Shown piece after piece: positions 1-41,154 of a stretch of DNA of 64,000 bases. Each line of letters begins with the position of its first letter. Within the stretch, counting starts at the first letter, position 1. Source of the stretch: Haplodiscus bocki (Eukaryota). Under the pieces are notes generated by a model, which had not been told where the DNA came from, searched no databases, and saw only the letters and a list, made by a program, of their open reading frames with translations. The position numbers and the translations under genes were made by a program. The stretch covers positions 36,146,001 through 36,210,000 of the forward strand of contig OZ296653.1 in assembly GCA_965655095.1 (NCBI GenBank), written 5' to 3'.

Positions 1-132
1 CCGCTTTTTACGGCATATCTTCCTGATATAGTTACAAGTTATAACTCGCCAGAGCGAAAACCACAAAAACAGTCAGGAACGAAATTTAGTAAGACTCCAG
101 CAGGAAAACGCAAAACTCATCATCAAAAATAA

Positions 133-2529
133 CGCAGATCTCCTTTCAGGATCACAACACTGCTATACATCTGGACAGTACTTTGCATTGCAAACACCAT
201 ACAGTACTCGACTGTCAATAAACAACAGCTACCGGAATTTGAACGAGGAGCCGCTTTCATCTTTAAATACCAAGTTGTGACTTCCGAAAGTGAGAGCCAA
301 GTCCGACTATTCTCTCCTTTCCCGACGCTCCCAGATGTTAACATTGACAGCGTGCGTGTTATCGTTCACGAAAGCAATGAGAAGCTCTCACACTTGCAAC
401 ACCGCGTCACACAGGCAGGGTGTAATAACAATACGTTCAATGAGTCTCATATACCAGTTTTACAACAAATGGACAACATGTACAATCATCTTAAGACTGA
501 AATTCACGAAGCACAATCTGAACTCAACACTCTGAGTGCCATTGCAAAATCCTTCTTTCCACCAGAATCATCACCGCGAACCTCTGGACAAAGACGTTCA
601 ACTGCTGAGGAAGAACCTCACAACAGAACACGACGGCTCATTGGTGCTGTCGCAGCCCTAGCCGCGGGTACAGGATTCATCTTGGGAGAACCAATTAAAG
701 ATGTAGCATGCAATGCACTCTCCATTTTTAATCTTTGTGATTCTACTGAAGAATTAGAACGAGAACTCGCTCAAGTGACCAAAAAACAAAAGACACAACA
801 ACAGGCATTTCAGATGGTCCAAGATAAGAACAACGAAAAACTTGCATTACTTAGAGACGAAATTCGCCTAACCCAGGAAAGTGTTGAACGAATTAAAAAC
901 GACACCTACCTACGTATCTCGTATATGCTCGAGCGTATATACAGTCTTGAAGATGCGTTTCGATGTTATCAATTCGAAAGTGCGTACCGCCACTTTCTCC
1001 AGTCTTCACAACTGTATTTATCACAAATCGGCACTTTGTACACTCATTTCAAAGCTTTTCGTGCAGCATTTTACGCGTATAGAAACAATTTCTTTTCAAT
1101 CATCTCATCTCTCGCTACTGGACATATCACACCACAATTCCTACTCCCCACTCAACTTGCTACAATAGTACAGGAATTAGCCGCTGAAGAATTTCGGAAA
1201 GGTAGCAAACTGACACCTGCTATACCATCGGGATTCGACGCTATCTATTACGAATTGCAAATCGTACTAGAAGTCACAATGTTACCTAAAGGCATCTCTT
1301 TTGTACTCGGCATTCCAATGAACTCTAAATCCGCGACCTATAATGTTTTCCAAGCCGAACCTCTATACCAACCCAATGACGACGGCAAAACGGCATCACT
1401 TTACCAATTTCCAAAACCCTACGTCGCGATTGCAACAGACAATACGAATTTCGCAGAGTTAGCCGCGTCTACGCTACAACAATGCACGGGCAGTAATCGA
1501 ATCAAACTGTGCCGCAAAGGCTTTTCGACTACTACTGATGAAACGCTTCTCTGTTTGACGTCGTTGTATTTTAATCAAGACATACCAGCACTCCGAAATT
1601 GCCCCGTTTCCTCTGTCTTTCTCCCGGACGCCCCACAGGCAATCTACTTGGCAAACGGCGTCTATCACCTCATTTCACGGCACCCTACAATCGACATTAA
1701 GAACGATAGCCGATCAAATGGACTCAGTTTGTCTACGATCGATTGTCACGCGTGCGTCCTTCGACCAAGTTGTGAAAGTACTCTTTACATCAATCAAGGC
1801 GATCTTGTTCTGTCACCCGATATGGACGCATGTAAAACAACTCCGGAACCGTACATTGCAACAATCAAACTGGCACCACCTTTGAATCAAGTTTTTCAGA
1901 ATGTCCCTTTCGATCGACTTAACTTTCCAAGTTACTCAATCGGTGCCGCTCGGAAATCAATTCTTGAGAGCGTACAATTGGAACTGACTGAAATTCCAGA
2001 CGTTAGACGAATGGACCCAGAAACTTTGCAAAAATTGACAGAACCAATTGTAGCACACTACACGTCTCTCAATCCTGCAACAGAAGCCGCACTTGACAAA
2101 TTTGTACCGGCGAAAACTTCATTCTTAATCGCAGGCGGATCAATCGTACTCTCTTTATTTTTGTTTTTACTTAACTTTCCACTCTTTCACAGACAGGCAC
2201 GTGCACTTTGCTGTGCCCCACGTCGTTTCTTCAAGAATAAATCTGGCCAATTTATTCATGTCACGAACGACATCCAACCAGACTCAGACTCTTCATTTCT
2301 AATTTTGACTCGTGAGGAATTCACTGCACTACGTGCTCTTGCTAAAGAAGCCTTACTGAAGACTGAAGCTAACGCACCGTTTGTTTACTCCGCCGAAGAT
2401 GAAGAAAAACTGTACCCGGACGTCACCGCACCAACCAGAACCATTCGTACAACACCTCCCTTGGTTCTGACCACCTTCACTCCAGCTCCGGTACCTCACG
2501 TCGACACCACACAAACTACATCAGCCTAA
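133..2529 (+). CDS. env: Envelope (class I fusion, baculovirus-F/errantivirus-env/paramyxovirus-F-like) glycoprotein of an LTR retroelement; open frame begins after TAA 130-132, no ATG before the signal peptide
   Basis: Frame is open 133-2529 (track ORF 277-2529 is its GTG-started part). Contains a hydrophobic signal-like segment ITTLLYIWTVLCIANT (151-198), furin site RTRR (625-636) followed directly by a fusion-peptide-like LIGAVAALAAGTGFILG (637-687), a heptad-rich helix (TEELERELAQV...ERIKND), a Cys-rich mid region (LQQCTGSNRIKLC; CLTSLY...RNCPV; CHAC...PSC), N-glycosylation sequons (NNT, NES, NRT, NDT, NDS), a TM segment FLIAGGSIVLSLFLFLLNFPLF (2122-2187), a juxtamembrane CC and a ~110-aa tail. 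Confidence 0.88.
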   Translation, partial: RRSPFRITTLLYIWTVLCIANTIQYSTVNKQQLPEFERGAAFIFKYQVVTSESESQVRLFSPFPTLPDVNIDSVRVIVHESNEKLSHLQHRVTQAGCNNNTFNESHIPVLQQMDNMYNHLKTEIHEAQSELNTLSAIAKSFFPPESSPRTSGQRRSTAEEEPHNRTRRLIGAVAALAAGTGFILGEPIKDVACNALSIFNLCDSTEELERELAQVTKKQKTQQQAFQMVQDKNNEKLALLRDEIRLTQESVERIKNDTYLRISYMLERIYSLEDAFRCYQFESAYRHFLQSSQLYLSQIGTLYTHFKAFRAAFYAYRNNFFSIISSLATGHITPQFLLPTQLATIVQELAAEEFRKGSKLTPAIPSGFDAIYYELQIVLEVTMLPKGISFVLGIPMNSKSATYNVFQAEPLYQPNDDGKTASLYQFPKPYVAIATDNTNFAELAASTLQQCTGSNRIKLCRKGFSTTTDETLLCLTSLYFNQDIPALRNCPVSSVFLPDAPQAIYLANGVYHLISRHPTIDIKNDSRSNGLSLSTIDCHACVLRPSCESTLYINQGDLVLSPDMDACKTTPEPYIATIKLAPPLNQVFQNVPFDRLNFPSYSIGAARKSILESVQLELTEIPDVRRMDPETLQKLTEPIVAHYTSLNPATEAALDKFVPAKTSFLIAGGSIVLSLFLFLLNFPLFHRQARALCCAPRRFFKNKSGQFIHVTNDIQPDSDSSFLILTREEFTALRALAKEALLKTEANAPFVYSAEDEEKLYPDVTAPTRTIRTTPPLVLTTFTPAPVPHVDTTQTTSA

Positions 2530-2544
2530 GTTTCACTCCAAGTA

Positions 2545-3025
2545 ATGTATCATAGTGTCTATTGTACAAAGTTCACCACGTAACATAGGTAAGTATCCAA
2601 AAAGTAAACGCCTCTTCGGAGCCTCTGTGTGGCACTAGCGTGCCCCCCTCTAATCCGTCATTCCGTCCATTTCAGCCTGCATCAATGTTTCATTTGCCTC
2701 CAAGGCGATCACCTGGTCTCTCCCCGAGCCACACGCTGTCCATTTTGTTGCCAACCCTTGGCTTTTGTCCAAAACTTCCTTCAGCCCCATGTGCTCAACT
2801 TGCTCCTTTGCCCCTGCCGTTGCTCATTGCCATAACCCCCAATTTATAACTGGCCCCACTTCTACATCTCTTTGCAAACCCTGCTCCCAAACGTCATATT
2901 ACTTCACACACATTTGCCCTTCATGTGCTCCACGGAAACCAATTTCCTTTCATGAATTACCCAGATTTACTTTGTTGCGACCCCCGCATTCTCTTGTTTG
3001 CCCAACCTCCGCCTCAATTTTCTAA
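2545..3025 (+). pseudogene. Cys-rich zinc-binding (RING/B-box-like) accessory ORF downstream of env, probably two-exon (2545-2588, 2676-3025), with one in-frame TAA and one +1 frameshift
   Basis: ATG 2545; donor AG|GTAAGT at 2588/2589; branch-like CTAAT 2650-2654; pyrimidine tract and TTTCAG| at 2675 (87-nt intron). Reconstructed: MYHSVYCTKFTT*HS-LHQCFICLQGDHLVSPRATRCPFCCQPLAFVQNFLQP/MCSTCSFAPAVAHCHNPQFITGPTSTSLCKPCSQTSYYFTHICPSCAPRK..., with five CxxC pairs; frameshift most simply one extra C in CCCC 2785-2788. Confidence 0.55.
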
Positions 3026-3541
3026 ATTTTTTACTTTTCAACGTAGATACCCCAACCATGAGAAAAACAATTGAGACGATGATACGTAATAAACTTCAAA
3101 TTATAGTGACCGGCTCTTATAGCCCTTCAAAAATGTCTTGCTAACCTAATAGTTCTTATTAGTGCTTGGATCTTTTTAACTCAGTTCATCAGCGAACTCC
3201 ATTTGTAAGCTCAGCAGCTTCCTATTTGTGAGACGGTTTCCGCGTCTCCCCTTGAATATTTTAGCCTACCTTCTGCATCAATGACAACTTGTGATGGGTG
3301 AACTCACAACGTTCTAGCGGGTCATGTGCTTCACCTCTTCGATGACAGCCAATACCGCATACTCAGGGTCACACTTTTCTCTGGCCCGGCGATCCTAAAA
3401 AGGACAAACCATTCTACAAGTCGCAGTTTTTTTTTACGGACCCCTTCACAACTTTTCATGAGCGCTCCTCACATGGTCAATCAGTCAATCTTCTTGAACC
3501 CGTCAACGATGTCTCAGTTTAGTTTGTGGGACACAAACTTC

Positions 3542-3554
3542 AAGAAGGAAAGCA
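3542..3554 (+). other. Putative polypurine tract preceding the 3' LTR
   Basis: AAGAAGGAAAGCA ~1 kb downstream of the env stop, followed by TATGACAAT (3556, read as a mutated TGTGAC LTR start). Confidence 0.45.
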
Positions 3555-3555
3555 T

Positions 3556-4875
3556 TATGACAATCAGAAATTGTCAAAAGAAATAACATGAACGTTTTGA
3601 TAAACATGAACACTTTTAACTCGAACAATTTTGAACTACTTTTTCTATTCTAATTTTGGTGCTCACCTCTATTATTCTTAAATTAGATTGCACTTATCAT
3701 ACTTCTGATCACGCCAACATATCACGCCACCTTAGTCTAATAAAAGTGCAGAATTATTATTAAAATGACGATGATTTCTGGTGCTTTAACAATCTCTTGG
3801 AGATGGCTGCTACATGACAGCAACGTCCTGGAAACGCTTTGACAACCAACATTCCAGAACATTCCAAGGACGAACTCCAGAGACTTTTTACGCCATCGAT
3901 TGCACCAGATCGACAAAAATAGCCAAAAATCGTCAAAAGCACCAACAGGCGTGAAAATTCATCACGCCGATCGGGGTATAAAAGCCAGAGCTCCAAAATC
4001 AACTTTTCAGTGCTCAACTCGGTAATCTGAAAATCAACCTACGACGTTAGACGTCTTGTGAATGAATCTTCAAAACAAATAGCCAATTTCTATCTTCAAA
4101 TTTTCTGACGAATTCGAATCCCGTCTATTCAAAGAACACCCCAGAAGGATCAATTGGCTGTCTAGAAGATTTTGATCGTCCACATAAGTTTCCAATCATA
4201 ATGTCGTGAGTTCTATTAGTTTAATCTTATAATTTCTTTTGTAAAATACAATTTTGTTAAACCGTACCTTAACGAAAAGAAATTCAATCAACTTCATAAT
4301 TTTAGTTCTTTCACTTTTACCATAGCAAGCTCTAAACAGATCAAAATTTTTGTAACCCCAAAGTAGTTAAAACTACTTTTTCAATTCAATAGTAGTGAAG
4401 TATCCCAGACTCACTACTAACAAAACCATTTACGTGACGAGAACCTGAAACACACATCCGAAAGAACAGTAAAGATGAAATTTGTTCAGAGCTTGTTAAA
4501 ATTTGAGAAGATAGAAAGTCAGAACCACCACCACCATTAATCGAGATTATAAAATTTAGAATTAAGAAACAACTCGTTTGCATAGAGTTGATAGTATTCC
4601 AAACCAAATTCACTCTATACCGTGCGGTGGGCTAAGTGACGGTAAGGTACCAGCGTAGCATATTGACCCGAACCAAGTAGAACCTGGAAGCTCTGCAGTA
4701 CGGAAGATTTGCATGGTTGTGAACTGAACGTCTTACGGTTCTGCCAAACACCATAGAGTGGATTATTTAAGACGTATAGTTAAGAAAGAATAAAATTCAG
4801 CCACCACCATTCAATACAAAAAAAGCAAGCCACTCGAGCAGAAAAAGAATATGAAAACACAACACACACGTCACA
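3556..4875 (+). mobile_element. Putative 3' LTR of the env-bearing retroelement (right end uncertain: GTCACA at 4875, or CGCAACA at 5938)
   Basis: Follows the PPT; T(A>G)TGAC...GTCACA would be inverted termini; internal TATA/Inr pair; AATAAA near 4789. The 5' LTR is outside the window, so no confirmation by direct repeat. Confidence 0.4.
3977..4011 (+). promoter_or_regulatory. Pol II core promoter in the putative LTR (TATA box + initiator)
   Basis: TATAAAA at 3977-3983 and TCAGT at 4007-4011, with the A 32 nt from the first T of TATA, which is canonical spacing. Confidence 0.6.
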
Positions 4876-5951
4876 ATAGTTATGAACGAACTTTATCCAT
4901 TCGCAACTCTGAATATTCGATCTCCAACAGTTTCCAGGTATTTTTCGCTCTGAGATAATACATGATTTCAGCTTTGTTTTTTGATTGTCTGTTATTCCTT
5001 TGTTTGATGGTGATATCTGTTTTAGAATCTAAATTACAGCGAATTCAATCTATTTCACCGCCAGATTAGTCGGTCAAATGACGTTGACTCATCAAAATTT
5101 TGTTACCTTCTCGACAAAATAGAACGCGTAAATAATCACAAGCTGCGCCTCAGCCTAAAAGACTGGTTTAAAAACTACTTAGGCAACACATTCATTCTTC
5201 CACCTATTCCACACATTGTGTTTTATACTAGCCTTGCGATTCCCCATTTAGGGAAATGCTTTAGTTCTTCAACTGAACCTCAACCTTACGTTTTATCCCT
5301 CCAATATTTTTCTAATTATCTTGTATCACAAGTGGCTTGCGGAAATACAGCAACATCACCTATGATGTCGGAAAATAGTAAATGGTTGACTTATTGAAAA
5401 GCGAATGTTTTCCTTTTAGTTTTAGAATTTTTGTAACTCGACGCAATGCCTTTTAGCAAAACAGTCACTCTTTTAGTGTGTTTCAATACCTAACCACTTT
5501 TGCTTGGGCGATTAAGATACAAAACGTTTCCGAGAAAGCTATCCAAAACAATTGGACTCTCTGCCGCTGACCTAATCAAATGATGTGTCCTCATCATCAA
5601 GTACTCTTACGTTTCCTTATCCCGAACAAAATAATCGGAACTGGGAGTTCAAAATCCAGAGCTTCACGTTCCACATTCGTTTTTCTCCGACAAAAACAGA
5701 CAACTCTGACGAATTTGTTGTACAAGCATTGTGGGACCTCACATAGAAAACAAGCGAACACATTTTGTTGGAGCGCATTCCAACTCCTCAAGGAGACTCT
5801 GCTCGAGACACTTCTGAGCACATATCACAAGACTGTGGAGTCTTAGGATCCCCATATTGGCTGAAATTCCTTCCTATGAGATAATCTTGTCTTTAAACTG
5901 TCCCACCAAAAGATATCTACAACGAGGAAGCCGCAACATGTAGGAAGAGGT

Positions 5952-12556: not shown

Positions 12557-12756
12557 NNNNNNNNNNNNNNNNNNNNNNNNNNNNNNNNNNNNNNNNNNNN
12601 NNNNNNNNNNNNNNNNNNNNNNNNNNNNNNNNNNNNNNNNNNNNNNNNNNNNNNNNNNNNNNNNNNNNNNNNNNNNNNNNNNNNNNNNNNNNNNNNNNNN
12701 NNNNNNNNNNNNNNNNNNNNNNNNNNNNNNNNNNNNNNNNNNNNNNNNNNNNNNNN
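12557..12756. other. Assembly gap (200 N)
   Basis: Run of N; the poly-X ORFs in the track are artefacts of it. Confidence 0.99.
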
Positions 12757-13950: not shown

Positions 13951-16900
13951 TAGTGACCATCCATATTTTCCATAAGCTTTTTTACCGCGAGCGCTTGTAC
14001 ATGAAGATGGCATCATGGGATTGTTGTGTTTTATAATAATTCTGTTCCGGAGAACCTGATGTTTGCCCTGAGGAGACAATTTGTGATGTTCCGAGCAGTT
14101 CCGGAACAGAGTTTTTGGTGGGACGCGCTACATCCGATGCGGAGATTTTCAGCGCCTGGACAAATGCTCTAGTGGAGATTCCGTCACTTTTGTACAGTTT
14201 TCGTGCTTGTATTGAAAAAATTGGTACAGGTTATCATCGATTTCCTCTTTTGCAGGTCCAGCTGATGACAATCCAGATTTCTCCGGAGCTGGTGATGAGT
14301 CGACAGAGGCGAAGGTGACGAGTGACAGGAGACGGAAACACGTTGTTATCACGCGTCGTTTCGTGCCGTTATCGGGTCGGCAGCCAAGCCCAGTTGAGTT
14401 TGGAAGCCGCACCTGAAGCAGAGCATTGCTTGAGCAGGCTTTCGACGATAGTAATGATTAATTCAAATGAGGATGTTTTGAGTTTGGTTCCTTGAGGACT
14501 CCCCTTTCCGTTGAATTTTGTTTTAGAACACATTCCCGTTGAACCTGTAATTGCTCCAATCAATGCCACCAGGCATCAGTTGGTGATGCCGTGCCGCACT
14601 ATTTGCGCAGGAAGCGTTAATTAAGATCCACTGATGGGGCGTAAGTACTGTCGAGACATGTTCCATAGCTTTCGCACCTTTCCTTTCTTCATTGTATCCT
14701 TTCTGTTCACAGAGCTAGGTGCTGTTCGTCATCAAATGGGACAGCGTGTTGCACCTTCTAGCCCTCATGTTCTTGAAACCAGTGACACCAGTGGCGACGA
14801 ATCAGTGGCCAGCCAACCCCGTCGGCGTGTGCGTTCAAGTGGACGTACAAAATGCAGAAAGTGTGGGCGAGGGGCAGATGAAAAGGGCCAGTTTTTTGTT
14901 ACTGGTGCTACGGATTCCGTTGGCAATTACAGCCACTTCTACTATCGCATCTGCCGCAAAGACGTGTCGGTGTTGACACACGGCCTGCATGAAGTCCTTA
15001 GGCGCTTCCAAGGTACCGAACCTTTCCTTCGTGACCAGAGGCTGACACTGGAGAAACCTGGTTGGCGGGTATTGAACTTTGAGGGAAACACCTCGGTGAC
15101 AAAAAGATTCAGCGCCAACGAGAGTGCATTGTTCGAGGTCCTCTGGTCATTCGTGATCGATACGCTTCTTTAGCTGGGGATCCTATTGTTGACGATTCCG
15201 GGACCTCAGATGCCACATTGCCAGTCCTTGCAAAGGTGTCATCTCTGATCGAAGTGTTGTGACTGGGCAGCTTTTACGCGTTGGTTCACCAACTGTGGGC
15301 ACAAATCACCCTGACAGCCAGCCGGGTGAAGGATGATGTGACGTGGTCCCGCAATGAGGTGCTGGTTTGTAATTTCCTTGTTCAATATTTCTACGTATTC
15401 ATGTGCATTGGTTTCTGGTGTTGTGTTTCATTCGAATAATTTGAATGGGAGGTACCCCCGCATCCTCTCTCGTGTGTCTGGTTTGGTGAAATTGTATGGA
15501 TAGTGCAGCATCGAATTTGAGGAGCGCAGGCCAGAGGTTTGGCAGATGGTGCGGACGTGAGAGAGGTCCATATTTCGGCGTGTTTGTATTGCGGTTTCAA
15601 CACCAATAGAATGCTTGAGGCCACCATGTTGGGGAAGCTTCTGGATGCTGCTGGTCCAGATGTGGCTGTAGTGTGTTTCCATGGCGGACCACATGTAATC
15701 ACCAAAGCCTTTGCCAGTTACTTTGGTAGTGGGTACCAAGCAAAACTTTTGGAATACCCAACGTTTGACCTCCGGTTGTTGAATCGTTGTTTTCAGCGGA
15801 CTGCGGCATCTGTGTATTAGAGCGTTGACCCATTCTCATTGACGGATTTTGTAGTGAATCGTTTGATGGACTCAATGACTGACGACTGGACGGCGTTTCG
15901 TCCCGCATTGGGAAGGGCCATCATCACAAACGACCTCTCGGTTCCAGACCTAGTCAATGTGGTAGGTTACATCATTGGGGTATGGCCGCTAATGGTGTCA
16001 TACCCGAAAGAGACCGGGCCAAAGGAAGATGGAGATAGTCTTGTGGTAAGGTCTTCCATTTTGGCTAGCCACTTTTGCGACTTTACATTGTATTCATTGC
16101 TGCTTTGTTTTTTAGAAGAAGGGGATGGACGGTATCTGTACCTGGATCAGCTTGCCCGCATGAAAATCAGACTGTTTCAGCTTCTTCTCAAAATCTGTAC
16201 GTATTTTCGTCACCCTTTCCTTTACATTATGCGTTGGTTAGGTAGCAGATCCGGTTCGGTTCCCGGAAAATCTCTAGGAACGCACTAGTAATGTTCCTCA
16301 TTGGTTCCTTGTTTAGTTTTCATGATGTTCCATGCACTTTGGTCTCGTTTGCGTAACAGTGGTGTTGTTTTTAAGCCTGTGACGTATAATGTTGTTTCAG
16401 TTGCCAACATTTTCTTGCATCCCCAGACTGCGAGTGAATACGGCTATCACTGTTTGGCGAGTTGGCTCGGTTCATCTAATGCCTCCTCCAGCAGGTCAAG
16501 CAAATGTCTTTTTTGCCTCTCGTGGAGCAGTTGGATCAGTATGTTTTGGCCAACCATTCCAGGTTCCCCTCAATTGCCGATGAAGAGTTTTTGTCGGGGA
16601 CTCATGTGGTGATAGCTGTCACTAAAGTTGGGAGCTTTTATTTGAACAAAGAGTTCCGTCGGGAGGCCCGGCAGTTCCTGGAGGAATATACCAATTCAAT
16701 GCTTTCTAATGTCGCTGCACGATCCCACATCGGGCAGCGACTAAGCTGTTTCTGCCATACAATCGTCATTGGTGGAGACGACCACGCGCCGGTTCATCTG
16801 TTTGGGTTGTTGCTTGATGGGCTCCGGGAGAAGGGGTGGGTTGGAGGCAGCGATGTAGAAGCTTGAAGTACTGAGTACCAATCATTGTCCAAGGAAAACG

Positions 16901-17796
16901 ACAACTAGAGCGGTCTTCAACGAGGAGCCGCCCTGACGTAGGGAACGTCCTGCCGTTTTACCCTTTGCAGGCTGGCTTCCTTGCTTGCCAGCATCTGTTT
17001 AAAAGATGTTGTCTGACCAATGATGTAAAGCATTGTTACAGTAGGTGTCATGAATAAATTGTCTTTATTGCAGGTGTTGCAGCTGACAGCTCTGATTGGT
17101 CGTGGGCCCGTGACTTCCTCTTAGGAGTTTGTCATCAATATGGACTTTGTGATGATCACTGAGGATGAAGTGCGTGGTGCTCTGCTTTGCGTGCAGGATT
17201 TCGTCAGGATCCCGCACTTCACTCAGAGGAATTTCTTTTTCGGACCTCGGTGTCGCGATGTTGACTGAGTCTGCGGTGATCTCTGACAGCATTACTACCA
17301 GTGCTGTGTAAGAACCATGGAGCCACGTGGAGACTCAGTCCCGCTCTCAGGTGGTTACTGAGTTTTGTGTATGTGTCAAACGGGCTGTGGATAGTCGAAA
17401 GGTAGTCAAAAATTCAGAGGATTATTGGTATGCGATGGCTGGTGTCTGGCCGTCCTCAGAACATTCGGCATCTCGATGTAGGGTGCGGATCTCCAGCGTA
17501 TTTGAAGAGGGACGGGTTGAGTAAGTTCCTGTCGGCGCTCCTAGTATTAGTGCTCCCAGCTCCAGCAGTCTGCGTGTTTCTTCAGGAAAAACGAAGAAGA
17601 GAAGGGTCAGCTGGAGCCCGGCGAAGCTGCCTAGGCGGTTTGAATTTCAAACCCTCCTGGAACATCTCGCAAAAAATCTTCAGTTGAAGATTCAGGCTCA
17701 AGTGCAGCATTGGACGGCCAGAAATCCCACGGGAACTCACGGCGAAACGGAGGAGACCGCAAAGCCCCTCCTGTTTTCCAAAGGGGATTGTCAATA
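13951..17796 (+). mobile_element. Decayed ~3.8-kb TIR DNA transposon, hAT-like, with fragmented intron-interrupted transposase
   Basis: Imperfect TIRs TAGTGACCATCC / (rc) TATTGACAATCC; GC-richer interior with broken + strand frames 14.7-17.5 kb, including a BED/U1-like zinc finger (HFYyRICRKDVSVLTHGLHEVLRrFQG) and hAT-like C-terminal pieces; intron-like GTAAG...TTTAG at 16046-16115. No TSD found. Confidence 0.5.
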
Positions 17797-18177
17797 TTGA
17801 AACTGCTTCGCTTTTGAGTTCTGTAAACTTCTCAATAACTTCTCAGTTCATTTGTTTTACCTATTGTATACATATTTTGTCGAACAATCAGAAAAGGATA
17901 ATCTATAGAACATTTTGAATCCAGCCTTCGTTCAGGGATGAATTTAGTATTAGTGGCCTTGTCTTTGAAGCAAGTAGGACCGAGTAATAAGTGAGTTAGT
18001 CGCCAGGGAAAATCCACAAACAGGTAGAAAAAATTTCTGAAAGGCTAAGTATCGATTCTGTAGCGAGTACCTGGAGTTTTTCGGAACGTCTAGGTATGCG
18101 CTCTTAATGCAAATTTAGACTTCTATATCTGTAGTCACCAACGCAATTAGGTTTCGAATTGTGACATAGGTCGTATT

Positions 18178-19031
18178 TCATACCGCAGGGATTGAAAGGA
18201 GTAGGGCTGGGTCAATCGGAACGCGTTTCCGCATCAGTATCCATGGGGGAATACGTCTCCCCTCCGTCACATAATCCGTCTGTTTGCGGAAAAAATTGTG
18301 GGAATCCTCTCGTGAAGTTCCTCGAGTGATACTCGTTTCATCGGCTGTTAAATCAGATTGTACTGCAGTCTCGGATGAATTGGGTGTCGCAGCATTATCG
18401 TAATCCTTATCAAAGGTTGGCTTTTCGTTTTCACATTCCCATGCTCTGGCGTACAAATCATCGTGTGTAAGCGTGTTTTCTGGGTCGCATTTCCATTTTC
18501 GTGGCGTCATTTGTACATCGGGTATGGGTTGTTTGGGTGTGAATTGGAGTAGTGTCATACGATGAAGCGCTTGTGTTTTATCTGTACCGGTTTTGCAAAC
18601 CAAAAAATTGATATTTGGTAAGGCCTTTTCAATAATGTCAGGCGCAATCCACCAAAATTCTGTAGAGGAAATTTTGGTTCCTTGGTGGCCTGCTTTATGT
18701 TCTAAGACATACACATAATCTTTCTCTTTCAGATTCGAGGCATTTGCTTCTTTTTCATAGTACCCCTTGTACTTGATGTAAGATCGGAGGGCACTCTTTC
18801 GGACATCTGGATAAATCATTTCTGTCTGTTTAAACACATTTTGAGCAATTTGTGAATTTGGCATGAGTTTTTCTTGCGCGAACGTATGCCCATTTTCAAA
18901 TGTAGGACATTACAAGGAACGCGTCCATGAAACACTCTGCTAGGTTCATAGCTATTACTTGCATAATAAGATGTGTTGTAATTAAGGACCACAATGCTGA
19001 CATATTTATGCCGTTTTTTTCCAATTGCCAT
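18178..19031 (-). pseudogene. pol: Gypsy integrase C-terminal remnant (core end + GPY/F-like region)
   Basis: KYVSIVVLNYNTSYYAS..EPSRVFHGRVP.NVL.LKMG, then YIKYKGYYEK...LKEKDYVYVL...WIAPDIIEKALPNINFLV...LHRMTL, typical of Gypsy IN C-termini; frameshift near 18.83 kb. Confidence 0.8.
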
Positions 19032-38241: not shown

Positions 38242-39806
38242 TGTCGCAGTATAACCGCGAAGCCTACGTACATTAAGAAAGAAAAGGACATCCCCAGATT
38301 GCCTGAAATTTAGAAGAAACTTTATCAATACTTTAGACTTTTCTATTTCCATTCACATAACAATATTGCAGTAATTTCATTGCTTTTACATGTAGTGGAT
38401 ACGTATCAAACACGTACCACTCCCCAGTATATTTTCATACAAATTCTACGTATTTATACGTAGCACTCCGTGTACTGAACCAGATTGGGACGCAACCTTT
38501 ACGTGGCGAACACGTACCTAACTAGCAGTATTTTGTTACGTGCGCGGTACGTGGCTACCGATCTGGTGACGTCACAAAATTCTCAGCCAATCCGCTGTGC
38601 TTTTGCGCTGTTTCACTTTGGTCGGCTACGTGCGTCTACGTGGCCACCAGATTCATTTCTCCTCAGTAGTACTGCGGAAGGCAGTGCTACAAGCGGCACG
38701 TAGCCGCACGTGCCACCACGGCCAAAGTGTGCCGTAAGCTAGTAAAAACGTGGAACGGGCTAGGAAAACGCCTAGTTTCGTTCCGAAAGTGGATTAAATC
38801 GATGCAGCAGTATTACCAAGCAAGTAATTATGAATTTCTGTGATTATGTTACTGTATTTTAGTTAATTTTACTGCATTTTTCATTACTTTCCTCTTATGG
38901 AAAACCTTTTTGATTACTTGTTTATGTTATTATTTATTGTGTCGGCGGGGGAATAATCACTTCGATATCCATTTCCGACTGATCAGACACGTATATTTTC
39001 CGTCGAAAGATGGAAAAGACGCGGTCTGTAAAGGAAGAAATGGAGGGAAAGTTGTTTATTTCCCGCCAGAGTCGGCATATTTTCTTTGTAATTATTATGA
39101 TTAAAGTACTTTTCCCTACTTTGTACCTTTACTTGGCGTGTAAACAATTATGTTTCCCGCCAATGAAAAGGTATAAATAGGAGAAACGAAAGTACTAGGA
39201 GGAGATCCTTAATATCACTTTGTATATCAGTTGACTGTACTGATTGCGACTAGTTGTTTATTTTAAAGAATAACATTTTGTTATAATCTCAAGTTTATTA
39301 ACAAATACAAAATAATTCAGTCTTCAGAACTGCGTAGCATTTTCCCTTCAAAAAGATGGCAACGTTGAGAAACAAACGAAAGTTGGCAGCCGTTACAAGA
39401 GAAACACAAGAGGAAAATCCTAGGAACGGCCAGTCACGAAACACGTCCGTTCCTAGAATTAACGAGGAATATATCACACAAGTTTCTGAGGAGATTGAAG
39501 GCAGAGTCAGTAAAAAACTGTCCCAGGAGTTCAGCAGGACAGAGTCCCGCATTTTGGGTGCTCTGTCTAAATTAGACGAATTTCTCTTGAACCAACAGAT
39601 ACGGACGCATTCCGAAACCGTTCCGGGAACATTCCGGAACATAAACGTGGAAAACCAGGGAACGAATGAGGACGACTCCCAGAGTGATCCTCATCCTGAA
39701 GTGGGACCCTCCGTCTGTCAATCCCGTCATTCAATTGACTCAGACACAGGCGAGACTCATGACACGATGACAGGAGTTATAGAACAGACTTCCAAGGGTC
39801 CTCACA
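38242..39806 (+). mobile_element. Solo LTR (family A, copy A) including the first 150 codons of gag
   Basis: TGTCGCAG...CCTCACA with perfect 5-bp TSD AACAC (38237-38241 and 39807-39811); homologous to 28188-29941 (rc) and 41155-42788. Confidence 0.92.
38940..39180 (+). promoter_or_regulatory. LTR promoter module: E2F-like sites, forkhead site, TATA
   Basis: GGCGGGGGAA 38944, TTTCCCGCC 39059-39067 and 39153-39161, GTAAACA 39140-39146, TATAAAT 39172-39178; CRE TGACGTCA and CCAAT further upstream (~38566-38591); conserved in copies B and C. Confidence 0.6.
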
Positions 39807-39817
39807 AACACAAATGA
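39356..39817 (+). CDS. gag: Truncated gag-like N-terminus (MATLRNKRKLAAV...) carried inside a solo LTR; last codons and stop come from flanking DNA
   Basis: 153-aa ATG ORF; homologous starts at 28590 (-) and 42383 (+); the LTR ends at 39806. The gag assignment is inferred from position behind the LTR promoter. Confidence 0.6.
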   Translation: MATLRNKRKLAAVTRETQEENPRNGQSRNTSVPRINEEYITQVSEEIEGRVSKKLSQEFSRTESRILGALSKLDEFLLNQQIRTHSETVPGTFRNINVENQGTNEDDSQSDPHPEVGPSVCQSRHSIDSDTGETHDTMTGVIEQTSKGPHKHK

Positions 39818-39944
39818 ACTGATGATTGGTTAATCTTAAATTGATTCAAAGAGTGCAAAATCTGGACCTTGAAGGACATCCTAGTTTGATGTTAATTGTA
39901 AAAAAGATTTAATGTGAGCATCAAAAATTCGAAAAAATCCTGCA

Positions 39945-40080
39945 CCATCTCGTGAAGTATATCGAGAGGGGGTATTTTATAATCAATACATATAATTACA
40001 TTCGGTGTTTTCAGTCCGCGCTGTAGTAGTTCTACTAAAAGGTCCGACTAGAACGGTGGAACGTACCAAAAAACCTCCTG
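39945..40080 (+). repeat. Dispersed repeat, second copy at ~62787-63020
   Basis: ATCTCGTGAA.TATATCGAGAGGG...TTCGGT...GCGCT.TAGTAGTT.TACT...GAACGGT.GAACGTACCAAAA shared by both loci. Confidence 0.7.
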
Positions 40081-41154
40081 GATAGCTTATTACAGCACCA
40101 GCAGAAACTGTTCGGATAAGCAAAAACCAAAAAAATCTCAAAAAGTTGGCCACCAACCGCCGGTCCAATTTTTTTTCGGATACCCTCATACGTTTTGATG
40201 AGAGCGTTGAATGCCACACATATTTTTCCAAGAAGTCGATCACGTTTATCAAGTATTGGGAAATAAATTTAGGAACGAAGATTCCCCCCTCACATAAACC
40301 ATTTTTTTGAAACCTTAACTTTATTTTAGGTAAAAAGTTAGGAGTATGAAATGGGAACAAAACCTGACAGATTTTAGTGAAGGCTTCCTTTGAAATTCAC
40401 CGATATAAAATTGCGGAGCTATGAAACACTTTTTTTTTCATTTTCAGAGCTACGGCATGGAACCTTAGATAAGATGAAGTATTTCTCTCGTCCAAAGTTT
40501 CCATTACTGGAATTTCACTCCCGCTAGTAGGATTTATTACAACATTGATACGATGACCGTTAATCTATTGTTTGTTCATAAGTTACGCTGAGTGGCTTAA
40601 TATCAACTCAGCTTAATTTACTTTAACTAAAAATTGCGGTAAAAGGGAAAAATATCTGCTACATATAAAACAACTTCAGTTCCCTCCTAAAACTTGGAAA
40701 GTTTCATTGAACTTTTGTGACTCAAATTTTGAAAGTTACTTATAAAACCCAGCCGAAATTTGCAAAAAGCATCAAAGAAACTTGGAGAATAGGAAAGCAA
40801 CAAACAAAATTGAGACACAAAAATTTTTATATGAATCACTTCAAGTCATTCAAAATGTGTCAAGTAACCTACAAGATCATACAATAATTTCACGCAACCT
40901 CCACCAAGGATAAAGCACCATACCGCACTTACACCTTTGCATTTTTCGCTATTTTGTCACAGAGACTGATTTCCGTCATCAACCGAGGAAAGACATTAAG
41001 TGGCCACAGAGTATTCTCAGCACTCCTGGACACCAGACGTGATTGTGACGGAGAGATTTGATGATCAAACTTCTGCGTAATCTTCCAAAAGAAACGAAAT
41101 TTTTGATGTTCGCGAACACCATCAGAAATCCACCAAATCAAGAAATTATTCAAC

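Follow-up and report, generated by a model that had tools for sequence, protein, structure and literature searches.

We analysed a 64,000-nucleotide stretch of the Haplodiscus bocki genome (GenBank assembly GCA_965655095.1, contig OZ296653.1, positions 36,146,001 to 36,210,000 of the forward strand; hereafter the window), which opens within a long terminal repeat (LTR) retroelement carrying an intact envelope (env) gene. An open reading frame (ORF) scan of the window found env open over 798 codons, ending at TAA 2527-2529; at the window's stop frequency a frame of this length has a chance of ~1e-18, and the second-longest ORF in the window is 228 amino acids. The original prediction had described an uninterrupted frame with the segments of a class I fusion protein, and every segment it named was located (Table 1). 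The N terminus is hydrophobic and helical (residues 5-21 in the structural model), the furin-type motif RTRR is followed directly by the hydrophobic sequence LIGAVAALAAG within a Gly/Ala-rich stretch (residues 169-188), the long helices span residues 206-232 and 241-328 in the model, 15 cysteines accompany a Cys-rich beta core, and the cytoplasmic tail is about 100 residues long. Position 133 had been implied as the start of env; it proved to be the codon directly after the pol stop and is not a start codon. The first in-frame ATG, at 469, lies past the signal segment, and the start codon serving that segment is a predicted one, discussed with splicing below.

Table 1. Features of the env-bearing retroelement; positions are those of the window unless a locus is named.
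Feature	Positions	Strand	Basis or remark
pol 3' tail, low-complexity, after the integrase C-terminal domain; stop TAA 130-132, in the frame of env	1..132	+	TAA in 29/30 copies
env open frame, predicted F-type class I fusion glycoprotein	133..2529	+	fold, relatives' Pfam matches, feature clusters
Predicted env splice acceptor, pyrimidine tract, AG 148-149, phase 2	142..150	+	YAG|G in 30/30 copies
Predicted signal-peptide hydrophobic segment, residues 7-20	151..192	+	model helix 5-21
Furin-type site RTRR (residues 165-168), 625-636, and fusion peptide, 637-696	625..696	+	motif in relatives
Heptad-repeat A helices, residues 206-328	748..1116	+	model; residues 218-249 pLDDT <50
Transmembrane segment, residues 664-682, then cytoplasmic tail to 2526	2122..2178	+	Kyte-Doolittle 2.27
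Accessory frame 1, phase-2 acceptor AG 2674-2675, Cys-rich, 52 codons in the window copy	2667..2835	+	acceptor in 27/30 copies
KOW/SH3-like frame, phase-2 acceptor AG 3263-3264, premature stop 3299-3301	3257..3555	+	homologous to ORF4 N terminus of sister families
Polypurine tract	3542..3552	+	
3' LTR, 1320 bp	3556..4875	+	partner 5' LTR 7577-6255 bases upstream of the window
TATA box 3977-3983 and TCAGT initiator-like motif 4007-4011, in LTR	3977..4011	+	sequence; putative function
ATG plus two bases before GTGAGT donor, 3' LTR copy	4201..4211	+	5' LTR equivalent would be the working copy
AATAAA polyadenylation signal close to LTR end	4789..4794	+	sequence; putative function
4-bp target-site duplication ATAG	4876..4879	+	matched left of 5' LTR
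ORF4 of sister families	L098:2781-3761, L102:2644-3609, L108:2811-3788, L112:2737-3753, L096:2636-3736, L113:2496-3350		L113 is an outside contig

Retrieval of the sequence upstream of the window, as had been proposed, recovered both gag-pol and the 5' LTR. A gag gene (Retrotrans_gag, CCHC) is followed by pol, which encodes protease, reverse transcriptase, RNase H, a macrodomain, integrase and a p58 C-terminal domain; the Pfam domains of pol are of Ty3 type, and the element is a complete gag-pol-env Ty3/gypsy provirus flanked by a 4-bp target-site duplication. Across 1324 aligned columns its LTRs are 99.6% identical, with 2 substituted positions and a single 3-nt indel, and with only 2 substitutions in a 1320 bp LTR the insertion is very young. 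The primer-binding site (PBS) is of tRNA type and matches one genomic site resembling a tRNA 3' end, at which ARAGORN calls no tRNA.

Structure and distant homology place the env product among the F-type fusion proteins. There were 123 env relatives in the database, and a profile search retrieved 975 at E <= 0.001. Two of the relatives, P0067 and P0080, which are 41-46% identical to the window env, pass the Pfam cut-off for PF12259 (Baculo_F), and in 46 of the 51 aligned relatives that cover the region, [RK]x[KR]R precedes hydrophobic residues rich in Gly and Ala. An AlphaFold2 model built from 64 sequences (predicted local distance difference test score, pLDDT, 76.6; predicted template-modelling score 0.61) was compared to known structures with Foldseek. 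All 45 rows listed from PDB were paramyxovirus or pneumovirus F proteins (best E 8.8e-6), and among viral models chu-like glycoproteins, an abalone herpesvirus protein and baculovirus F led with E values of 5e-20 to 1e-17. Aligned by VIA to postfusion Nipah F, the model gave Z 8.9 over 284 residues at a root-mean-square deviation (rmsd) of 5.2, and Atlas features placed env at 0.95-0.96 to the Baculo_F and Fusion_gly clusters.

Some results weigh against this assignment. The window env itself (P0001) had no match by sequence in Pfam or PDB, and only 7 of the 74 aligned members matched Baculo_F even at E up to 1. Residues 151-249, which include the cleavage site, the fusion peptide and the start of heptad-repeat A (HRA), are mostly modelled at pLDDT <50, and the end of the tail is poor. 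A Z near 8 approaches the range that VIA calls common and is not decisive alone, and whole-chain TM-scores were low (0.14-0.41), as expected for a protein whose long helix is mobile. In addition, all 14 distant full-length env homologs lacked any Pfam match, the 74-sequence profile searched against PDB gave only coiled-coil chance matches, and cluster look-ups supplied no names. Since the fold, the Atlas features, the relatives' Pfam matches and the conserved cleavage and fusion-peptide motif all agree, we consider the F assignment firm: the gene almost certainly encodes the F-type Env of a young Ty3/gypsy provirus, a putative trimer with putative fusion activity.

The predicted head fold, long HRA helix and layout of cleavage site and fusion peptide are shared with paramyxovirus and pneumovirus F, baculovirus F, and chu-like and lispivirus glycoproteins. 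In contrast to the viral F proteins, to which it is 6-15% identical, this Env has a longer membrane-proximal helical region (residues 582-657) and tail, and the element has no attachment protein. In the immediate family of the window copy (family A), and there alone, another basic cluster, QRR, lies 12 residues ahead of RTRR (env residues 152-156, window 586-600); it might free a short peptide, as in respiratory syncytial virus F.

The genome contains many close copies of this gene. Among the best of 4855 candidate env matches scored, at least 56 were full-length at 92-100% identity (family A), and 38 of these 56 had no stop; the count is a lower bound and is biased to intact copies. Searches with four relatives at 42-49% identity uncovered four sister families (B-E) and also a sixth family, F; near-identical copies are numerous in every one of them. 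LTR pairs of the sister families were 99.3-99.9% identical in 8 of 10 stretches, the other two being a tandem duplication and a stretch without a pair. Tandem or nested element duplications were seen in L105/L106, in L111 and at G000 C3 106133533-106160370, among them three copies ~12 kb apart with identical scores. Outside this genome, a search of metagenome_contigs found 3 related loci, and a search of viral_contigs found no relative of the env element.

Variation among 30 family-A copies indicated how env has been maintained. Variants common to at least two copies had a ratio of nonsynonymous to synonymous polymorphism (pN/pS) of 0.08 (70 nonsynonymous, 256 synonymous), compared to 0.33 for singletons (121 nonsynonymous, 113 synonymous; Fisher p 1e-13), with 60 multi-base codon changes left out of the counts. 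In families B, C, D and E (10 copies each) the shared-variant ratios were 0.05, 0.06, 0.18 and 0.05. This pattern makes it highly likely that selection at the level of the replicating element maintains env, such that it would stay intact because env-keeping copies replicate better and not through host use of the locus. Two points count against the overall interpretation: the 30 copies compared were the best-scoring ones, so env intactness is overstated, and in the window copy itself pol carries a frameshift close to the integrase C-terminal domain, a short way upstream of the window. Among the family-A copies read, pol was open to the stretch end in 4 of 10. Copy number, LTR identity and env selection, the measures proposed beforehand, all agree with a young multicopy lineage; a young, potentially infectious lineage was the first option of the original prediction.

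Alternatively, the elements could now spread only inside cells, with env and the accessory genes downstream of it (described below) being recently released passengers or aids to budding. The higher singleton pN/pS would fit such a release, as would the loss or truncation of accessory modules in sublineages that continue to replicate. However, families that are 40-50% identical, and more distant relatives too, retain the furin site, fusion peptide and transmembrane segment, and each of the five families counted has a pN/pS within 0.05-0.18 for shared variants, making purely intracellular spread unlikely. We favor the reading in which Env serves entry, likely letting particles enter other cells of the same animal.

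How the element would express its genes was examined from conserved signals. In 18 of 19 stretches spanning six families, gag terminates at TTTAAAC followed by a stop, and pol lies in the -1 frame. In 8 sequences the hairpin after TTTAAAC was paired in 89% of cells, and 3 of its 8 pairs changed on both sides. We infer a programmed -1 frameshift from gag to pol, by which unspliced RNA would yield Gag and, at TTTAAAC before the conserved hairpin, Gag-Pol.

For env, the signals point to splicing from a short exon in the LTR. The acceptor (CAG in 24 copies, TAG in 6) requires a phase-2 partner, and a TAAC around the pol stop may be its branch point. A candidate partner is an ATG plus two bases before a GTGAGT donor, located downstream of the TATA box: all 11 of its columns are invariant in 10 of 10 family-A 5' LTRs, whereas in the ungapped flanks 2 of 40 columns on the upstream side and 5 of 40 on the downstream side are. 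Because TCN always encodes Ser, the base that opens the acceptor exon is under no constraint in family A, and this base does vary, being G in env, C or T in the first accessory frame and T or C in the KOW-like frame. The donors of families B, C and F read AT|GTAAG. Each of the 6 env and ORF4 acceptors in these families opens a long phase-2 frame with G first; G as the first base after an AT| donor would create ATG at the joint. In families D and E env has its own ATG just after the acceptor, and there is no short ATG-bearing donor. Both start modes, a short upstream exon and an AU dinucleotide, have been established experimentally for Drosophila env (Senti et al., PMC12992720).

Not all of the splicing evidence points the same way. 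Our acceptor scan was crude and unspecific: at threshold it missed the acceptors of family A env and family D ORF4, and it listed many sites that open nothing. G after an acceptor is also the general splice consensus, which weakens the 6 of 6 count. All 10 family-A copies examined have another strong donor, one with no ATG, 100-113 nt beyond the PBS. In 3 of 9 LTRs a short upstream ATG comes ahead of the mini-exon's own, and in the outside contig L113 the nearest acceptor-like site before ORF4 is out of phase 2. In 4 runs consisting of contigs of unrecorded kind, none of the 15 joints listed (159 more were beyond the listing) coincided with the predicted splice, a result that carries no weight on expression. 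Even so, splicing of env from an ATG mini-exon in the LTR is likely given the conserved motifs, and expression of the accessory frames by the same donor is probable, with somewhat lower confidence. The exon ending in ATG plus two bases would join the phase-2 acceptor at 149/150 and thereby supply the signal peptide of Env; furin would then cut after RTRR and free the fusion peptide, and the protein would refold around its long heptad helix in the manner of the F proteins of paramyxoviruses and baculoviruses. The same donor would join further phase-2 acceptors after env to produce small accessory proteins. Taken as a whole, we assign a probability of about 0.8 to the reading that this is the F-type env of a recently multiplied gag-pol-env Ty3/gypsy family, spliced from an LTR mini-exon and likely serving cell entry.

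The donor past the PBS offers a different route to env RNA. Splicing from this AAG|GTAAGT site ~100 nt past the PBS could be followed by near-cognate initiation after the acceptor, given that the site is consensus-perfect in 10 of 10 family-A copies and that ATC and ACG/CTG codons come after the env acceptor. However, no in-frame ATG lies upstream of this donor, families C and F meet the same start-codon need with AT|G, and by speculative analogy to HIV the donor may instead protect the poly(A) site of the 5' LTR; we consider this route quite unlikely. Two conserved donor-like sites without an ATG were noted in all 10 family-A copies in addition to the mini-exon donor, at window 4638-4647 (LTR) and L031:3840-3857 (~100 nt past the PBS).

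Env could also arise without splicing if ribosomes read through the in-frame TAA at 130-132 to make a Pol-Env polyprotein, from which the internal signal segment would release Env. The pol tail and env of family A indeed form one frame with one stop (29 of 30 copies), the stop is absent in one copy and in the database protein P0185, the outside contig L114 has the same single-frame arrangement, and the two codons after the pol stop vary only synonymously (CGC AGA or CGA CGA). In families B, C, D, E and F, however, pol ends out of frame with env, with two stops or in a phase that varies, and a conserved pol-env read-through was rejected on this basis. Read-through also leaves the invariant LTR ATG-donor and the CAG/TAG acceptor unexplained, and it would rest on Pol, itself merely a frameshift product. 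Because the pol-env phase is not conserved across families, we regard read-through as a minor and very unlikely rival to the predicted LTR mini-exon.

The LTRs that carry the mini-exon are mosaic in family A, with several unrelated U3 and 3' versions around a conserved middle block that holds the ATG-donor (window 3556-4875). Small frames were found in the long 5' leaders before gag in families C-F (L101:2793-3251, L105:2668-3159 and the leaders of L097 and L111); some have a hydrophobic segment and could encode small membrane proteins.

Downstream of env, family A carries a variable cassette of RING-like frames, a 126-codon frame of no recognised kind and the KOW-like frame. Among the 30 copies, accessory frame 1 has 127 codons in 11, 52 in 10, 97 in 4 and 59 in 2. 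The 127-codon form combines a RING-like part with a zinc ribbon, and Pfam zf-RING_4 matched weakly at E 2.5e-4; this and all other RING matches fall below Pfam cut-offs, which tells against the RING label. Across the 11 copies the RING-like frame had a pN/pS of 0.15, compared to 2.09 and 1.75 in the shifted frames, and the KOW-like frame had 0.08 (14 open copies, first 70 codons). These counts indicate that the accessory frames are under purifying selection. The 52-codon variant, the one present in the window copy, had a pN/pS of 0.61 on 12 changes and may be decaying. In longer family-A copies the 126-codon frame (L042:2938-3318) and a second RING-like frame (L042:3465-3947) were seen; both are absent from the window copy.

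The lesions that the original prediction saw in the accessory region of this copy are real breaks, and they are not private to it: the 52-codon form recurs as counted above, and the premature stop of the KOW-like frame is present in 7 of 17 copies in which the frame was found within the 1.5 kb read. Lesions as a mark of the window copy alone were rejected on these grounds. Its second option, an env held open by host selection in a syncytin-like or receptor-blocking role, is most unlikely and largely refuted: an intact env beside broken pol and accessory frames would fit such domestication, but this env belongs to a complete provirus of very recent insertion, counted among at least 56 close copies, at an age when an intact 2.4 kb frame needs no selection, all 3 of the window copy's private codon differences (small numbers) are nonsynonymous, purifying selection is strongest on shared variants, and the accessory breaks were inherited in common with other copies.

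All five sister families have a longer gene after env, ORF4, with 320-430 codons that encode a KOW/SH3-like domain, a coiled coil, a J-domain with the HPD motif and a Cys motif; family A has lost the J-domain part. The genome holds 127 ORF4 matches, and ORF4 also follows env in the outside metagenome contig L113. Pfam DnaJ matched ORF4 above cut-off in families C, D and E and, as a point against a uniform J-domain assignment, below cut-off in B and F. A model of family C ORF4 (pLDDT 70.7) aligned to J-domains with Z 10.3 (74 residues, rmsd 2.5) and to KOW with Z 7.9. Foldseek on ORF4 gave nothing at E 0.001, its weaker rows being J-domains and KOW, and an Atlas search with ORF4 gave nothing above 0.81. 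All ORF4 homologs were unnamed ENA proteins, and in family C the pN/pS of ORF4 was 0.32 on 14 changes. A fifth frame, 205-213 codons long and starting at an ATG of its own, occurs in family B (L096:3941-4558, L094:3937-4578); it appears SGNH-like by eye and had no Pfam or PDB match.

A further host-like domain lies within pol. Between RNase H and integrase, families A, B, C, D and F encode a macrodomain, which was not detected in E; it is closest to TARG1/OARD1 (E 1e-32; L031:7756-8178, just upstream of the window). From these domains we infer that the accessory and macrodomain products may recruit Hsp70, take part in ubiquitination and reverse ADP-ribosylation. RING-like and KOW-like proteins in family A, the ORF4 product in the sister families and the TARG1-like macrodomain would most likely act on the host chaperone, ubiquitin and ADP-ribosylation systems.

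Env-bearing Ty3/gypsy elements are already known from many animals. Chary & Hayashi (eLife RP108449, PMC13524379; 2026) describe 1512 of them, mostly multicopy, from most animal phyla and with F-type envelopes included, and Rodriguez et al. 2017 (PMC5408684) describe paramyxovirus-like F env and other ORF3s in bdelloid rotifer LTR retrotransposons. An F-type env outside insects is therefore no novelty, and env alone is a divergent branch of a known class and not new in itself. The surveyed elements, as presented in PMC13524379, share with ours the gag-pol-env order, a pol of protease, reverse transcriptase, RNase H and integrase, an F env with signal, furin site, fusion peptide and transmembrane segment, a tRNA PBS, many near-identical copies and non-insect hosts. 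In contrast, the elements analysed here have a macrodomain in the pol bridge and further genes after env. The main text of PMC13524379 contains no mention of macro, splicing or readthrough, and its 7 text supplements contain none of DnaJ, RING or accessory/additional ORF. In the same source the insect errantivirus clade has a pseudo-RNase H duplicate in the pol bridge, where ours holds the TARG1-like macrodomain. The neighbouring elements may resemble those of acoel worms, in which case the known range would widen, as Xenacoelomorpha is missing from the taxon list and supplements of that survey.

As in Drosophila gypsy, ZAM, springer and idefix (Senti et al., PMC12992720), Env-F here would start via a short upstream exon (A) or an AU dinucleotide (B, C, F); unlike in those endogenous retroviruses (ERVs), the donor of A, B and F lies inside the LTR and apparently serves several acceptors. 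Env is also ~780-800 amino acids long and falls below the PF12259 and PF07253 cut-offs itself, unlike the Drosophila proteins. The rotifer elements (PMC5408684) likewise combine an F env in a non-insect invertebrate with captured extra ORFs, but there the alternatives occupy ORF3 (esterase, exonuclease, transmembrane protein), whereas here env coexists with one to four frames, J-domain or RING-like.

Host-like accessory domains are known from other retroelements too: macro or CNPase ORFs in fish epsilon-like ERVs (PMC4977317) and RING, BIR and other host domains in the planarian gypsy elements Burro/GYPSM1 (PMC6431247), and between them these papers also mention ORFs downstream of env. The fish ERVs, by those accounts, belong to Retroviridae and the Burro/GYPSM1 extras lie inside a giant ORF1, whereas the genes here are separate, small and placed after env on a Ty3/gypsy backbone. 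The accessible parts of PMC4695847 and bioRxiv 2021.11.30.470311 contain nothing on macrodomains in gypsy pol. A literature search found no description of env combined with a J-domain gene, RING-like genes, a macrodomain and a shared start exon, and this search, which reached few subscription papers and no Repbase, is not proof. On balance we lean toward the layout of env plus accessory genes with a shared start exon being undescribed.

Accessory genes and multi-acceptor splicing are usually seen as a mark of complex vertebrate retroviruses. The elements described here could well form a "complex" invertebrate errantivirus lineage, in which one start mini-exon in the LTR or leader serves several acceptors, an F Env is paired with a swappable host-modulating set, and Pol carries a TARG1-like eraser; such a lineage would have six or more active families within one genome, would occur in at least one other source and might belong to a phylum missing from the survey, an interpretation that we put forward as slightly better than even. 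If true, this Ty3/gypsy lineage would show complexity like that of complex retroviruses arising independently, and its accessory content would point to the Hsp70, ubiquitin and ADP-ribosylation pathways in invertebrate defence against retroelements.

Several minor features were recorded around the elements. Long exons resembling axonemal dynein heavy chain 5 (L112:6221-8860), at most 67% identical to named animal proteins, adjoin a family-F insertion. The position of this dynein in a tree of 41 rows has no support; the host is an animal. A tandem repeat array with a ~125-bp unit (L032:1075-4310) lies 8-11 kb upstream of the 5' LTR. Within the window, positions 12557-12756 are an assembly gap of 200 Ns, and fragments of other transposable elements occupy 14634-18864 and 39298-40360, among them a minus-strand ORF at 18178-18864 that resembles an integrase tail.

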